A stretch of 64,000 bases of DNA from Escherichia phage vB_EcoM_ESCO10. Below the pieces are notes generated by a model. It had not been told where the DNA came from, made no database searches, and worked only from the letters and a program-made list of their open reading frames with translations. Position numbers and translations under genes: made by a program. The stretch is from sequence record OM386655.1; one strand, given 5' to 3'. Shown here in pieces: positions 3,391 through 60,663 of the stretch (position 1 is its first letter; each line of letters starts with the position of its first letter).

Positions 3391-5513
3391 TACATTTTGA
3401 ATTTAGTTGGTAAAGCGGAGATGTTCAAAGATGCTGCAAGGATTTCCATAGCTTCGTTGCTTTCAGAAATAGATTCACTAATCAAGAATTGGCTGAATCC
3501 ATCCATCAGGCGAACTTCGCCGGTTTCCATCAAATGGTCACCATCGTAAACAGATTCGCTGAGCTCTGAAGGAGGTGTTACGGTAGCTTCCATAAGGTAT
3601 TTGTGAGACACTCTATCATTCATGGCAAAAGCCGCTACTTTATCAACCTTCAACAATAATCCGCGCGGAAGGATAATTTCTGCTTCTTCGGCATATTCTG
3701 TAAGGTCGCCGGGAGCGATAACTTTAACTGCTTCAGCACCTCGAATAACCATACCAATTTCAGCAATTCTATCCGCAGGGCCTTCAGGTGCAATTGGATT
3801 ACCAAACTCGTCTTCTTCCCATTCTACCTCTTCGTCATCGACTTCACCCACATCAGATGAACTACCACTAGCCAATTTAAACAACTCATCAGCGGAGGAT
3901 AAAGAACCTTCACCACCAACAAAAACGGCTTGGTTGTCGAGGGCCATATAATTTTTACCGAATTCACCAAAGATGTTAGGCTTTAATGAGGCTGACACAA
4001 AGTTCTTAAAGTAAAATGTTTTGTTATCGATATTATGGCGCAGAATTTTGTATGGCAAATCCTGACCACGATACAAAATAGTACCCTTAGGAAGTTTAAT
4101 ACCCTTAGTAAATGCTGAGTCTAAATCCTTAATCAATTTAATAGCCGTTGTATTGTTTTCGGATTCAGGTTTACCTAAAAGGAATAAGTTCATAGGAGCA
4201 TATTCAGCTGCGCAATATTCAATAATAGCGTTGCTTTCGTCTTTGGTTAGGTCCTTAGGTTTAATGAGCTCACCTGAATAAGCATATGCATCACTAATAG
4301 AATCGTTAATTAGTTTATAAACGGCTTCCATAGCGAAAGCAATTCGAGAGGCCTTTTCTGAAGGGGAGCCTTTAAAACGAGCGCTCAAGTTATTAACAAT
4401 TTTCTTAATAATATCCAGACTATTGGTGGTATTGATTTGCGAAAGGCCGCTTAAAAGTCTATCGACTTCTGTATTAAAAAATGCCATATTTTTAGAGTAA
4501 ATTTCAAACCCTTGTTTATCTCTATTAGCATAATTTAGTTTAAATTTACTATCAGTCATTAAAGCGTGCGTGAGAGCAATGGTGTATCTAAAGTTGGCAA
4601 GGTCCTCGCTCTTAGATTTAAACTGAGAAGCCTGGCGCATTTTGGTAATAGCACCTTTTTTAAAGTTCTGGCTAATCTGTTCAATACCTTCATTCTCAGG
4701 GCCTTCGGCAGTGTGAACCGGTACAGAAGCTTCAAATTCGTTATATACCTGCAATTCTTTAGGGGACAAAGTTTCAGGCTCAGCAGTAGAATACTGTGCG
4801 GCTGCTGCCATACGACGGGAAATCTTAGTACGGGTAATGACAGCCTTATCAGTACGTTTCTCTTCAACCTTAGCGATACTTGCCGCCATAGCTTCGACCT
4901 TACTTACGGCTTGACCTGTTTTCTTAGAAACATAAACTTCACCAACTTTAGACTCGACCTTAGTATAAAGATCGGCATCAATTTCAGGCATACCTTTGAT
5001 ATCTTCGATATTAGAACCACGACGTACTAAAAGAACGTAGGTATGTTTTCCACTGAATTGGAACATATCATCAACAACTTTAAACTTACCACCAGTACGA
5101 GCCATTACTAAACGAGCCAATACACGTTGTACAGTAGGGCCCTTACCTTTCATTTTCTTAGTAGGGAAACGGAACAGAACTGCGTCCATTTTAAGTTTGT
5201 TTACTTGTTCATATACTGTATCGAAAATAGTATTCAATGCACCAAGTGGGTCAGAACCAAGTCCACCTTTGAGTTCAGCCGGGGCTCCTTTGCTTGACAA
5301 ACTCATTAGAATAACATGAACATATTTGTCACCCGGCTTAACCATTTTAACTGCGTCTCCTTGAGACGCATAAGATACCATACGAGCAACAAGGTTATCA
5401 TTACCTGGAGCTTGAATAGAGAAAATCTGTGGGATACCGGAACCTGGTTTAAGATTTGTTACTGGATAGTTTTTAGCGGAATCACTATCAAAAACTTCGT
5501 TTAAATTTTCCAT
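3390..5513 (-). CDS. alt: Alt-like ADP-ribosyltransferase, paralog 1 (707 aa)
   Basis: Size and position match T4 alt (between 54 and 30); R-S-E ADP-ribosyltransferase motifs (LYRGQ ... FVSASL ... EAEIILPRG); N-terminal ~230 aa closely similar to the adjacent paralog. Confidence 0.7.
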   Translation of the reverse strand: MENLNEVFDSDSAKNYPVTNLKPGSGIPQIFSIQAPGNDNLVARMVSYASQGDAVKMVKPGDKYVHVILMSLSSKGAPAELKGGLGSDPLGALNTIFDTVYEQVNKLKMDAVLFRFPTKKMKGKGPTVQRVLARLVMARTGGKFKVVDDMFQFSGKHTYVLLVRRGSNIEDIKGMPEIDADLYTKVESKVGEVYVSKKTGQAVSKVEAMAASIAKVEEKRTDKAVITRTKISRRMAAAAQYSTAEPETLSPKELQVYNEFEASVPVHTAEGPENEGIEQISQNFKKGAITKMRQASQFKSKSEDLANFRYTIALTHALMTDSKFKLNYANRDKQGFEIYSKNMAFFNTEVDRLLSGLSQINTTNSLDIIKKIVNNLSARFKGSPSEKASRIAFAMEAVYKLINDSISDAYAYSGELIKPKDLTKDESNAIIEYCAAEYAPMNLFLLGKPESENNTTAIKLIKDLDSAFTKGIKLPKGTILYRGQDLPYKILRHNIDNKTFYFKNFVSASLKPNIFGEFGKNYMALDNQAVFVGGEGSLSSADELFKLASGSSSDVGEVDDEEVEWEEDEFGNPIAPEGPADRIAEIGMVIRGAEAVKVIAPGDLTEYAEEAEIILPRGLLLKVDKVAAFAMNDRVSHKYLMEATVTPPSELSESVYDGDHLMETGEVRLMDGFSQFLISESISESNEAMEILAASLNISALPTKFKM

Positions 5514-55782: not shown

Positions 55783-56172
55783 TTATTCCTTAAAGTGAGC
55801 TTTCAACATCTGGAAAACTGACCAGGCTTCTTCATTATTACTAATGGTGATTTTAGTCAACGGGAATGCAGTGATTTCTGGAGCTTCAGTTTCTTCATCG
55901 TCAGGTACACCGTCTTCATCAATAGCATATTCGGTAAAGAATTTTCTCTCTGTTGGATGAATGAACAAATCTCTAGTTTCGCAGTCCCATAATAAGGCTT
56001 GGCAGACTATGCCTTTATTAATAGATGCAGCTCTAAAAGCCCCAGCCTCATCAATCCATTTAGCCACCATAGCATAATAAACGGGTTTCATAGAAGAAAA
56101 TTCATTCATAGAAGCCTGGTCTTTAAACTGGTACCATTTACCAAATTCAAATTTAGATTCTTTATTAAGCAT
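55783..56172 (-). CDS. hypothetical protein (129 aa)
   Basis: Track ORF 55783..56265 trimmed to MLNKESKFEF.. with perfect SD GGAGG; overlaps upstream stop (ATGCTTAA). Confidence 0.45.
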   Translation of the reverse strand: MLNKESKFEFGKWYQFKDQASMNEFSSMKPVYYAMVAKWIDEAGAFRAASINKGIVCQALLWDCETRDLFIHPTERKFFTEYAIDEDGVPDDEETEAPEITAFPLTKITISNNEEAWSVFQMLKAHFKE

Positions 56173-56383
56173 TATAGGTCTCCTTCCAGAAGTCGGTGCC
56201 TTCAGCAGTGATTTCACGGAACACACCGTAAATAGGATTTTTATCATCTTGATTTTCGTATACATAAATCGATGATAAGTGAGAAAAAGTATCAGAGTGT
56301 TCCTTTTGGACCACGATTAAATCAGGGTTGAACAGAACGTCTTCAAATTCTTCACGGGTCAAGTTCACGGTAACTTTAGCCAT
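56165..56383 (-). CDS. hypothetical protein (72 aa)
   Basis: Track ORF 56165..56431 trimmed to MAKVTVNLTREEF.. with RBS GAGGA; track N-terminus is promoter read-through. Confidence 0.45.
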   Translation of the reverse strand: MAKVTVNLTREEFEDVLFNPDLIVVQKEHSDTFSHLSSIYVYENQDDKNPIYGVFREITAEGTDFWKETYNA

Positions 56384-56412
56384 TTTATTTTCCTCATCTA
56401 CACTTGTTTTTT

Positions 56413-56451
56413 GATAGGGTAATCTTATCACTACCCTATATTGTTGTACAC
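56413..56451 (-). promoter_or_regulatory. early-type promoter (GTGTAC-N18-TAAGAT) with -10 inside inverted repeat
   Basis: AGGGTA ... TACCCT flanks the -10; upstream of ORF 56165..56383. Confidence 0.3.
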
Positions 56452-56464
56452 TACTTTTTAAACT

Positions 56465-57031
56465 TTATGCACGATGAATATTGGCATACTCGACGATAAA
56501 GCTTTCAGGAACCACCTTAAAGGTTCCTATGAATACGATGTTATAGAGCTTAACACCTTCTTCAACCCACTGGTCAGTGATGTACCCAGACATGCTAGTG
56601 GTTTCATAAGTACCAAACTCTTCATCAATATATTCAAATGGTTTAGGTGAAACGAAAAAGACGCCTTGACCTAATTTCCATTTAAAATCAACACCAACAT
56701 GAGACTGGTCAATGGTTTCAACTTCTTGAGCCGGCACGCCACGGATATCATTGCTTTCGCACACATATCCATCATGAGATTCAACTTCTTCAACTACAGG
56801 AGCGACATATCCGGTAAATTCAGTTGATTCCAGGAATTTAGCACGCACATAAGCGAATTGGGTTTCCGTCTGGCCATTTTTAGGAATGATGCGTACTTTT
56901 ACTTCAGAGTTTTCAGGGCAGACACCTTCTTTAAGTTGAATACTAACAACTTCAACTAAACGGCCTGCAGCTTTTGAACGAGATTGTTTGGATACGCGAA
57001 CGATACCACCGATATTGGAAATAGAAATCAT
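56465..57031 (-). CDS. hypothetical protein (188 aa), paralog family member
   Basis: C-terminal block GYITDQWVEEGVKLYNIVFIGTFKVVPESFIV shared with the adjacent 247-aa protein. Confidence 0.5.
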   Translation of the reverse strand: MISISNIGGIVRVSKQSRSKAAGRLVEVVSIQLKEGVCPENSEVKVRIIPKNGQTETQFAYVRAKFLESTEFTGYVAPVVEEVESHDGYVCESNDIRGVPAQEVETIDQSHVGVDFKWKLGQGVFFVSPKPFEYIDEEFGTYETTSMSGYITDQWVEEGVKLYNIVFIGTFKVVPESFIVEYANIHRA

Positions 57032-57067
57032 AATTTTTCTCTCTTGGTTAAAGGTTTATTCTCCATG

Positions 57068-57102
57068 AGAGCCATTATAACATGGCTCTCGATAAAGTAA
57101 AC
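57068..57102 (-). promoter_or_regulatory. early promoter GTTTAC-N17-TATAAT, -10 inside inverted repeat
   Basis: GAGCCAT ... ATGGCTC flanks the -10; upstream of ORF 56465..57031. Confidence 0.5.
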
Positions 57103-57104
57103 TA

Positions 57105-57848
57105 TTAGTTCAAAACATTCACAACTGCACTACGAGGTACTACACTAAAATCACCAGCATGGACAACATTCAGAAGCTCAACGCCATCTTCAATCCATTG
57201 GTCTGTTACCCACCCACAGATAGGATTATCAAAAGGACGACGGACGCTTACTGGCTTACACAACAAATCGGACGGGTCTTGTTCGACTTCGACTTCACGG
57301 AAAAGGCCGAATTCAGCTTCATAGATAACAATTTTCTCTACTTTGTTATTATCTAACCGGCGACCGTAGATGACGTAAGATTTAGCAAACCAGTCGCTTT
57401 TGGTAAATTTTTCAACAACAAATGCACCTTCGCCGAAAACCTCGGACAAGGTTTTATAGCCAGAAACCAAGGCCTTAGTTTTAACTGCAGGTTCGACTAA
57501 TTGATAGGTTTTGTTAGTTTCGATAGTCATAATAGGTTCCTTAATTTCCAGTGGTTTAACAGGGCCTACATAAGTGCTTACAACATCAAAATCGATAAGC
57601 TGATTAGGAACTAAACGAATAAAGGCAGCCATTTCTCGTTGCGACAATCGAATAGTATGGATTTCGGGTCCGCCACATTCTTGAACTGTTACAGATTTAA
57701 TATTATCAAGCTCATCAGGCCCAATAGAAAGAATACGAAATTCATTGCCTTTAGTCATCTTTTTAAGGATATCATAAGCTTGGTTGTAGAGCTTAAGTTC
57801 AGCGTACGGGGTAACGATGTATTTGGCATTCGGATCGAAAGTGTTCAT
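57105..57848 (-). CDS. hypothetical protein (247 aa), paralog family member
   Basis: C-terminal block CGWVTDQWIEDGVELLNVVHAGDFSVVPRSAVV shared with the adjacent 188-aa protein. Confidence 0.5.
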   Translation of the reverse strand: MNTFDPNAKYIVTPYAELKLYNQAYDILKKMTKGNEFRILSIGPDELDNIKSVTVQECGGPEIHTIRLSQREMAAFIRLVPNQLIDFDVVSTYVGPVKPLEIKEPIMTIETNKTYQLVEPAVKTKALVSGYKTLSEVFGEGAFVVEKFTKSDWFAKSYVIYGRRLDNNKVEKIVIYEAEFGLFREVEVEQDPSDLLCKPVSVRRPFDNPICGWVTDQWIEDGVELLNVVHAGDFSVVPRSAVVNVLN

Positions 57849-58354
57849 AATTTTCTCATTTCAATAAAATCTACGAGTTCAGCATGGGATTTGCGGAACA
57901 TTACTTGGTGGTCACCAATGACAACCTCATCTTCAGGAATTTCGTAAACAGCAAGATAGAATCCTTTAGAAGATAATTCTTCGCGTTCTTCACGAGTGAA
58001 CCACCGCATCATATCATACTCGCTGGCAAAAGCAAAATGGTAGAGGTTAACAAACCAGCTAGGGATATAGTTATCTACATCTTTATAATCTTCATGTTTG
58101 AATTTGGTTTTAATTACTGCGTTAGAATTTCTAACCAACAGCTCGTCTTGACTAGGTAGCGGAATGTTTTTATTATTAGTATGATGGTGTCTAAAATTAG
58201 GTCTGTCGAACCCCACTTCTAATAACCATCCTTCACTCCATTCATCAAATGAGCCTCTATACGGTGTTAATTGGCGACATTGTTGGCGGGTGATTGCGAT
58301 AACATCGCCGTTATCTAAGATACTGAACGATGACTCGACTCGATAAATTTTCAT
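57845..58354 (-). CDS. hypothetical protein (169 aa)
   Basis: Track ORF; ATGA overlap with downstream gene; RBS GAGGAG; promoter at 58381..58409. Confidence 0.5.
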   Translation of the reverse strand: MKIYRVESSFSILDNGDVIAITRQQCRQLTPYRGSFDEWSEGWLLEVGFDRPNFRHHHTNNKNIPLPSQDELLVRNSNAVIKTKFKHEDYKDVDNYIPSWFVNLYHFAFASEYDMMRWFTREEREELSSKGFYLAVYEIPEDEVVIGDHQVMFRKSHAELVDFIEMRKL

Positions 58355-58413: not shown

Positions 58414-59088
58414 TTATCGATTTTTTACACTCAAAGGGTCTGGATTCTCAGGGACATCTTCCAGGCTTAAAGCGTATCGTTGGGCGTATTTAAGCATCAA
58501 GATATCCTTAGCACAGTCATGGATAGAGTCGTGAGCTACGAATCCTTTCAATGTCCCAAACGGCAGCGGACACATGCTTAATCCACGAGTCAACGAATAC
58601 GCTTCAATAGCAGTACGGATATCGCGTTGGTTCCAGAATTTAACAGGTTCTAACTTAGAGGTATCGATTTCATTCTCAGGAACACCTTCAGAACGGTATG
58701 CATCACGGATTAAGTCGACCAAGATTGGAAAATCAAAGGACATTCCACGACACCACATCTGGGATTTCCATTGGTCTACTTCGTTTTTGCGACAGTATTC
58801 TAAGAAGTTACCAAGCCCAATAGAAGTAGACACATCAATTTCAGACGGGGCTAGGTTTTTACGTGCTTCAGGCCCTTGCTCTTTCCACCATTGGAGGGTG
58901 CTTTTAGAGAACAGACGTTTATCGCGCTGAGAAGCAAGGTCAAATTTAATACGAAGGCCACGTTGAGTAAGCTCTTCAAATGATTCTACTATTTCCGGAT
59001 TAGGGTCATAAGCAATTACAGCTAGGTCAATAACAGCTGCATTCTGGGTAGTGGCAAAGGTTTCAAAGTCAATAATTATATCTTTCAT
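58414..59088 (-). CDS. dexA: exonuclease A (DnaQ-like 3'-5' exonuclease)
   Basis: 224 aa; N-terminal IIIDFETF exo-I-like motif; position between dda and gene 39 as in T4. Confidence 0.6.
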   Translation of the reverse strand: MKDIIIDFETFATTQNAAVIDLAVIAYDPNPEIVESFEELTQRGLRIKFDLASQRDKRLFSKSTLQWWKEQGPEARKNLAPSEIDVSTSIGLGNFLEYCRKNEVDQWKSQMWCRGMSFDFPILVDLIRDAYRSEGVPENEIDTSKLEPVKFWNQRDIRTAIEAYSLTRGLSMCPLPFGTLKGFVAHDSIHDCAKDILMLKYAQRYALSLEDVPENPDPLSVKNR

Positions 59089-59331: not shown

Positions 59332-60663
59332 TCAAACGTAATAGGCATCAGTACGAGCACGAGTAATACTAACATAAGCTAGCTGTGAAGCTAAATTAGC
59401 ATCAGCCATGTGCATACATGGGGTATAGATGAAACTATTCTGGACTGTGAGCCCCTGTGATTTATGAACAGTGCTCACCGGAAGAGCTCGAACCTTAGTA
59501 AACATTCTCTTGGCTTTCCAGAAATCAGCCCACTTAGGTTTCTTACCGGACCCACGCATAGCCTTATACTCAGTAGCAACCTTGGCCAAGAAATAATGGA
59601 ACTTCTCAACTGAAGCCTCATCAATAACCTTGATATGCTCTACGTAATACTCGTCATCTTCATCAATAGATTCAACCTGGAGGTCCCAGTAATTAACCAT
59701 TTGGCGAGTGCCTACATCCTTAGCAGACAAGAACATTGAGGTATGGTTCACATCTAGAATACGAACCAACTGCCCGTTATTAAAAATGGTTTCAGAGAAT
59801 TTCTTACCATCGTATTCAAGTTCCTTCATAAAAGGCTCTTGCATCACAAGGATTTCGCCCTTGATATAAGGGTCTTCGGTTTCGTAAAGCTTTTTACGGA
59901 TAATGCTATTAAGCTTTTCAACCGATTTATTTGTATAAGCAAACATCCTGTTCTCAAACAGTGCATCTGCATCTTTTACGATGGAAAAATAATTCATCAT
60001 AAAATCTTTTAAAGCGGTTTGGGATTTAAAACCATGAACACCATGGCCTTCGAATATGCAATCTCTAAACCAGCCGCCATTACGGATTTCAGTAGCAACC
60101 TCAATGATAGGAGCATTACTACGCATCACTTCAGTCAGATGTAGCTGTTTAATTTTAGGATGTGTAAAGAATGGAGACAACTGAGGGCTTCCATCACTTC
60201 CGGGTTCTACAGGTTGTAACTGTGCTCGGTCACCAATTCCCAGTACAGTGCACCATGGTGGAACCGAAGCTTCAATAATCTTAAACAACTTACCGTCAAT
60301 CATTGAGCCTTCATCAACAACTAGCACATTACATTTGCTCATGTCCGGAGCTTCGCGTTGTTCGAAGATATCCTGGTCTTCGTATGTAGTCGGGTTAATC
60401 TTTAAGATTCGATGAATTGTCGATGCTTCTTGGCCTGCAAGTTTAGACAATACCTTTTTGGCTGCGTGTGTAGGTGCAGTCAAAATAACTCCGAGTTCAC
60501 CATTCTTGACCAAGTGGTCAAGAATAAATTTAGTAAGGGTTGTTTTACCTGTACCGGCAGGGCCATTCAATGTAATCCATTCGCCCTTACGTCGTTTAAT
60601 AGCTTCAATGATTTCTTTAAAGGCAGTCCGTTGTCCGATATTCAAGTCTTCAAATGTAATCAT
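59332..60663 (-). CDS. dda: Dda DNA helicase (SF1B)
   Basis: 443 aa; Walker A GPAGTGKTT; strong similarity to recalled T4 Dda across the whole length. Confidence 0.85.
   Translation of the reverse strand: MITFEDLNIGQRTAFKEIIEAIKRRKGEWITLNGPAGTGKTTLTKFILDHLVKNGELGVILTAPTHAAKKVLSKLAGQEASTIHRILKINPTTYEDQDIFEQREAPDMSKCNVLVVDEGSMIDGKLFKIIEASVPPWCTVLGIGDRAQLQPVEPGSDGSPQLSPFFTHPKIKQLHLTEVMRSNAPIIEVATEIRNGGWFRDCIFEGHGVHGFKSQTALKDFMMNYFSIVKDADALFENRMFAYTNKSVEKLNSIIRKKLYETEDPYIKGEILVMQEPFMKELEYDGKKFSETIFNNGQLVRILDVNHTSMFLSAKDVGTRQMVNYWDLQVESIDEDDEYYVEHIKVIDEASVEKFHYFLAKVATEYKAMRGSGKKPKWADFWKAKRMFTKVRALPVSTVHKSQGLTVQNSFIYTPCMHMADANLASQLAYVSITRARTDAYYV

Follow-up and report, generated by a model that had tools for sequence, protein, structure and literature searches.

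The two adjacent minus-strand reading frames described here encode, with hardly any room for doubt, MotB (188 aa) and MotB.1 (247 aa) of a T4-like phage, and the same high confidence holds for the homology of the C-terminal block that they share. From our point of view, the pair as a whole is very probably explained by one common C-terminal domain (CTD) in motB.1 and motB, derived from an old duplication and domain exchange, which would act as an acidic contact module next to heads that would do the binding. The shared CTD and the different heads of the two proteins have already been published, in 2021 and 2025, and both proteins are labelled by Pfam. Patterson-West et al. (2021; Viruses 13:84, PMC7827196) reported a conserved CTD common to T4 MotB and MotB.1, whose N-terminal domains (NTDs) are different, suggested that one of the two genes arose by duplication of the other, and sorted 102 homologues into four categories by their NTD. 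T4 MotB is an abundant protein that is toxic on overexpression, doubles the burst size and relieves part of the H-NS regulon from repression; it binds modified and unmodified DNA tightly and without sequence specificity, and co-purifies with H-NS and StpA only when DNA is present (PMC6070864, PMC7827196). Compaction of the nucleoid by T4 MotB has been proposed in later work. Deletion of T4 MotB.1 had no phenotype under laboratory conditions (PMC12152347).

The window, i.e., the whole 64-kb stretch of DNA that was analysed, is part of a T4-like coliphage genome. Its segment 55300-59100 shares 91% DNA identity with the phages vB_EcoM-VR5 and NC-G and 86-87% with IME08-type Dhakavirus phages, and the minus-strand gene order from dda to gene 39 is the same as in T4 and IME08:

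59332-60663, minus strand: dda, the first of the early-region series, followed by a small ORF
58414-59088, minus strand: dexA, after the small ORF
57845-58354, minus strand: motB.2-like gene, directly upstream of the 247-aa ORF
57105-57848, minus strand: motB.1 orthologue of 247 aa, an extended variant, assigned by its ORF, phrog_2333 and gene position
56465-57031, minus strand: motB orthologue of 188 aa, assigned by PF17613, phrog_1671 and gene position
56165-56431, minus strand: cef, an ORF of 88 aa with a GTG start, next after motB
55783-56265, minus strand: GoF-like gene, an ORF of 160 aa, next after cef
following the GoF-like gene, minus strand: the zinc-ribbon 39.2 gene, 39.1 and the gene 39 topoisomerase subunit, in this order

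The coordinates stated for the motB.1 and motB ORFs proved exact. The stop codon of the motB.2-like gene, which lies upstream, and the ATG of motB.1 overlap (ATGA).

The 188-aa protein matches the whole profile of PF17613 (motB, modifier of transcription; E 4.1e-65, 219 bits, curated cut-off 25) and, with residues 4-188, phrog_1671 (E 1.3e-71). It combines a KOW-like N-terminal domain, a linker and a MotB-type CTD in one protein, which is the layout of T4 MotB (PF17613), and as in T4 its gene sits between motB.1 and cef in the early region from dda to gene 39. The 247-aa protein matches phrog_2333 (E 7.8e-74), occupies the motB.1 position of T4, IME08 and NC-G, and is 46.7% identical to T4 MotB.1 over its residues 103-247 (the sum of two tblastn pieces). 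Likewise as in T4 MotB.1 (phrog_2333; categories 2-4 of PMC7827196), an LSm-like/GoF-like barrel is followed by a MotB-type CTD, encoded immediately upstream of motB. For the comparisons below, 114 MotB homologues were collected, as well as at least 120 MotB.1 homologues among the matches listed, and subsets of both were aligned. AlphaFold2 models computed with the family alignments reached a mean pLDDT of 72.7 for MotB, with two barrels and a disordered linker between them, and of 68.2 for MotB.1. The parts of the two proteins can be delimited as follows:

57603-57848, minus strand: MotB.1 residues 1-82, D1, an extra N-terminal domain that is absent from T4 MotB.1
57531-57602, minus strand: MotB.1 residues 83-106, linker with the conserved linear motif LIDFDVVSTYVGPVKPLEIKE
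57279-57530, minus strand: MotB.1 residues 107-190, D2, the LSm-like/GoF-like barrel, which starts at the invariant M107
57108-57266, minus strand: MotB.1 residues 195-247, shared C-terminal module with the core motif GWVTDQWIEDGVELLNVVHAGDFSVVPRS at 57129-57215
56822-57031, minus strand: MotB residues 1-70, KOW-like barrel of five modelled strands (pLDDT 67-89)
56696-56821, minus strand: MotB residues 71-112, disordered acidic linker (pLDDT <50, net charge -9, poor conservation)
56468-56695, minus strand: MotB residues 113-188, shared C-terminal module with the core motif GYITDQWVEEGVKLYNIVFIGTFKVVPES at 56501-56587

The assignment of the MotB head to the KOW type is taken from PMC7827196. 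This head is basic (net charge +5, pI 9.9; family median +6 and pI 10.1). T4 MotB has 162 aa, and the window protein exceeds it by 26 residues, most of which form an insertion of the disordered acidic linker without counterpart in 65% of the homologues.

That the two proteins share about 35 C-terminal residues had been proposed from the letters of the DNA, and the similarity proved highly significant. BLASTP aligns MotB residues 147-184 with MotB.1 residues 210-247 at 19 identities and 27 positives in 38 positions with no gaps (E 3e-11 with composition-based statistics) and returns no significant alignment elsewhere between the two proteins. A comparison of the family profiles extends the match to 51 columns (E 3.5e-16), pairing MotB.1 195-245 with MotB 119-182, with a 13-residue insertion in MotB relative to MotB.1 in the first hairpin of the module. 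Owing to this longer hairpin, the module measures about 65-75 residues in MotB and about 53 in MotB.1. The consensus put forward by the sequence-only reading fits GYITDQWVEEGVKLYNIVFIGTFKVVPES and GWVTDQWIEDGVELLNVVHAGDFSVVPRS as it was written. One could object that a pairwise alignment of only 38 residues might reflect chance or composition in proteins that are otherwise unrelated. Against this speak not only both E-values, but also PF17613 itself, which scores residues 208-242 of the 247-aa protein at 34.4 bits, above its cut-off of 25, along profile positions 119-153 of 162 (the core of the CTD), as well as the core motif, which varies hardly or not at all among about 110 homologues from the two families. 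We regard an explanation by chance as practically negligible.

Homology established, the question arises how the two blocks came to be alike and stayed so. The adjacent position and common orientation of motB.1 and motB would lend themselves to recent gene conversion or recombination between neighbours, which could have kept the blocks alike in place of a common protein function, and relatives do carry exchanged CTD types and deletion fusions, such as the 43-aa protein P0254 described below. Within the present genome, however, the two coding segments are only 54% identical at the DNA level, agree at 11 of 38 third codon positions, which is near random, and have no shared run longer than 7 nt; moreover, each CTD scores higher on the profile of its own family than on that of the other. 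Such figures are those of an old similarity kept at the protein level and not of a recent conversion, which we consider very improbable. They point to an old duplication that would have been maintained by its protein sequence. When the 64-kb window was searched in six-frame translation with a profile of the module, exactly two copies were found, in MotB and MotB.1, and no further ones.

In this search a third copy also failed to appear that had been suspected within MotB, where GYVCESNDIRGVP (residues 88-100, window 56732-56770) had been read as a weaker internal repeat of the motif. The module HMM does not detect this stretch. In an ungapped BLOSUM62 comparison with the motif it scores 16, compared with 59 for the true pair, and 18% of shuffled versions of the N-terminal part reach this value as well. 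Furthermore, residues 85-95, which make up most of it, fall into a gap in 65% of the homologues, and the stretch has a pLDDT <50. As such, the resemblance is to be taken as a chance similarity in the disordered linker. The idea that the stretch might be a degenerate form of the MotB.1 linker motif was likewise dropped, as the linker-motif HMM gave only a hit at E 7.7, which lay elsewhere in MotB (FTGYVAPVVEE).

An SH3-like small barrel consists of five antiparallel strands, the last two of which are separated by a short 3-10 helix, while strand 4 follows strand 3 without one; in an OB-fold a helix is placed between strands 3 and 4. In the predicted model of MotB the module (pLDDT 77-93) comprises five strands (123-136, 140-157, 160-167, 170-175 and 179-182 by DSSP) and a short helix (HHH) between the fourth and the fifth. 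The predicted module of MotB.1 (pLDDT 60-77) has the same order, with strands at 199-202, 210-220, 223-230, 233-238 and 242-244 and again a short helix (HH) between the last two. Since a helix is absent between strands 3 and 4 and present between strands 4 and 5, the order is that of an SH3-like barrel in both proteins, and the fold predicted for the module is a small SH3-like barrel of five strands and not an OB-fold. The MotB CTD has been assigned to the OB-fold as a cold-shock DNA-binding domain (PMC7827196); in our models neither the helix between strands 3 and 4 nor a similarity to OB or cold-shock proteins was found. Searches of the PDB by sequence with both full proteins and the module profile retrieved no relatives. 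Likewise, the module has no detectable sequence relationship to the SH3-like small barrels of the Tudor, chromo, PWWP, KOW and Sm/LSm types, and, in contrast to these known barrels, its TDQW-E-[DE]-G motif is specific to the MotB/MotB.1 family of phages.

The charge of the module bears on its possible role. It is acidic in MotB (net charge -5, pI 4.6), in MotB.1 (net charge -4, pI 4.4) and in both families at large (median net charge -3 to -4, pI 4.4-4.9). Since the module is acidic and the MotB head basic, we infer that the head would be the main DNA-binding surface and that the module would rather be a common protein-contact or self-association domain, a tentative reading to which we give somewhat less than an even chance. 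An anchoring role of the kind suggested in the sequence-only reading is a putative one, with which the acidic charge is compatible. If the modelled fold is correct, an acidic SH3-like module would shift the likely DNA-binding surface of MotB from the CTD to the basic KOW-like head. It has to be weighed against this that the module might itself bind nucleic acids in both proteins, as an OB/cold-shock-like domain of the kind proposed in 2021, with the heads modulating specificity or partners. Such a role sits less well with the predicted strand order and the negative charge, and we consider it rather doubtful.

For the shared domain as a whole, the following course of events is in our view very probable. 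The CTD came to be in both proteins when, long ago in T4-like phages, a duplication and an exchange of domains took place, and selection at the protein level maintains it as a shared domain. Disordered linkers tether it to different small-barrel heads, a basic KOW-like one in MotB and an LSm-like one in MotB.1, the latter standing, in the phage of the window, behind the D1 domain and the conserved linear motif. On the more tentative reading of its role given above, the heads would supply nucleic-acid binding, with the basic MotB head as the candidate for the main DNA surface. One could further speculate that the acidic SH3/Tudor-like module serves docking or self-association, so that the DNA-binding KOW head of MotB and its LSm-like counterpart in MotB.1, which may bind RNA, would meet on the nucleoid, either at one and the same partner or with each other, and that the linker motif is a third exchangeable contact. 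The common partner could in this case be a host nucleoid or transcription protein. We offer this docking scenario as a conjecture that is, as it stands, rather unlikely.

The two heads belong to different families, KOW-like in MotB and LSm-like/GoF-like in MotB.1, which bears out the earlier impression of unrelated N-terminal halves. The LSm-like fold of the MotB.1 head was described by Kim et al. (2025; PMC12152347). In our model, D2 is well defined (residues 107-188, pLDDT 84-88) and consists of five strands, between which a helix is inserted. It is linked to the family of the neighbouring GoF-like gene by phrog_622, which is matched by the whole 247-aa protein at residues 107-192 (E 1.3e-5) and by D2 alone (E 2.7e-4). 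A HMMER search with the D2 profile did not detect the GoF-like neighbour; the basis of the link is phrog_622 together with published work.

Compared with T4 MotB.1, the window protein has about 106 extra N-terminal residues, which consist of D1 and the conserved linker motif. The model of D1 (about residues 13-80, pLDDT 55-72) is composed of a helix, three strands and a helix. No Pfam or PHROG family matched D1, and by tblastn it was found in only 9 phage records (NC-G, VR5, MX01, IME341, ABTNLsp5 and IME540). A class of MotB.1 proteins of 180 aa has only the first few residues and the linker in this region, a pattern that an in-frame gain or loss of D1 would produce. The similar order of secondary structures suggested that D1 could be a diverged duplicate of D2; this idea is unsupported, with no BLASTP match, an hhalign E of 0.07-0.1 at a probability <1%, and cross-HMM hits that are out of register. 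The linker that follows D1 has a pLDDT <50 at residues 83-94 and 101-106, and its motif LIDFDVVSTYVGPVKPLEIKE is near-invariant in the MotB.1 alignment at D86, D88, Y93, K98, P99 and L100. The same motif is found in other family members, where it separates the CTD from a head of the KOW or LSm-like type; it thus acts like a third mobile element and may be a short contact motif.

Beyond the window, the module profile was compared with 1.84 billion representative proteins, which gave 35 hits at E <=0.001, of which about 25 clusters are genuine. These carriers are 43-251 aa long and the module is always C-terminal. The clusters that bear names belong to T4-like phages of Escherichia and Klebsiella, and the long contigs with the module (165-185 kb) are likewise all T4-like phages. 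In a structural search of viral models, T4-like phages of Yersinia and Serratia also showed the two-barrel layout. With domain HMMs built in this analysis, the following architectures were assigned:

a KOW head and a MotB-type CTD
a KOW head and a CTD of the MotB.1 type or of an intermediate one, the linker motif often lying in between
the linker motif, an LSm-like head and a CTD
the linker motif, two LSm-like heads and a CTD
D1, the linker motif, an LSm-like head and a CTD (the MotB.1 of the window)
a different head, the linker motif and a CTD
short deletion products

The varied combinations of head, linker motif and CTD therefore make the family a set of mosaics, in keeping with the modular family of a common C-terminal domain and variable heads that had been surmised from the two sequences. 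The MotB/MotB.1 family is a small, closed mosaic set, found here only in T4-like phages. In the smallest carrier, P0254 (43 aa), the first 14 residues of MotB.2 (MKIYRVESSFSILD, cf. window 57845-58354) are fused to the 28 C-terminal residues of the MotB.1 module, which suggests a deletion between motB.2 and motB.1. This protein is reminiscent of a 29-aa peptide of RB69 reported in 2021 (PMC7827196).

Among the remaining hits are tail-fibre-like repeat proteins of 600-860 aa (P0253, P0255, P0256 and P0258-P0261) with 4-7 tandem repeats of the type GYATEQWVExKGYLTxHQSL. Over 20-25 residues these repeats are similar to G-[YW]-[IV]-TDQW-[VI]-E-[DE]-G, and their summed scores amount to E 4e-6 to 3e-4. 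The short motif matches, but the barrel does not, and we judged this a resemblance at the level of the motif and did not count these proteins as homologues of the module.

The comparison with T4 further brought to light a peculiarity of the reference sequence. In NC_000866.4 (= AF158101.6), the annotated MotB.1 of 119 aa ends with GWVTDQWIGRWR inside the module, and what remains of the module, EDGVELLNVVHAGEYSVVPRSAVVAILN, is encoded thereafter in a different frame. On alignment, the reference has one G more, reading GGATTGGAAGATGG compared with GGATT-GAAGATGG in resequenced T4, JoYop and the window (T4 NC_000866.4 about 4150-4300, minus strand; compare window 57108-57215). A 68-nt probe spanning the site matches 151 phage records, and of these the two copies of the reference are the only ones with the extra G; it is absent from 13 other T4 records, and resequenced T4 (MT984581.1) encodes an intact MotB.1 of 143 aa. 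Because of this single nucleotide in the reference record, the 119-aa protein lacks strands 3-5 of the module, whereas the protein of resequenced T4 is complete. Kim et al. (2025) reported a MotB.1 of 13.8 kDa, cited NC_000866.4 for the T4 sequences and stated that genes were synthesised and plasmids built commercially (PMC12152347). This size fits the 119-aa form, truncated within the module. As the protein used in these experiments would then be cut inside the module, the published negative results for MotB.1 may not apply to the natural 143-aa protein. By-products of this kind are of modest practical use for work on T4 early proteins.

The gap of 73 nt between motB.1 and motB contains two further elements:

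57074-57101, minus strand: promoter-like site, TTTACT, a 16-nt spacer and TG-n-TATAAT
57067-57090, minus strand: 8-bp inverted repeat GAGAGCCA/TGGCTCTC, which encloses the -10 hexamer in its loop

The promoter-like site, a match to the consensus only, agrees with it at 10 of 12 positions, has in addition the TG of an extended -10 element, and is conserved in T4 and JoYop. At the place of the inverted repeat, T4 has GGGACCA/TGGTCCC, and the pairing of the hairpin is therefore kept with different bases; the predicted RNA folding energies are -20.4 kcal/mol for the window and -19.4 kcal/mol for T4.

Lastly, several start codons deserve mention. A Shine-Dalgarno-like AAGGA lies 7 nt upstream of the invariant Met107 of MotB.1 (window 57528-57545, minus strand), and Met107 corresponds to the annotated start of the MotB.1 proteins of 141-143 aa in other phages. 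Judged by these signals, the 247-aa ORF could also give rise to a shorter isoform of the T4-like kind. The program-made ORFs of the GoF-like gene and cef overlap by about 100 nt, and the family matches begin only at residue 37 of the former and residue 19 of the latter. The true starts are therefore probably internal ATGs, namely M32 for the GoF-like protein (about 129 aa) and M17 for cef (72 aa).
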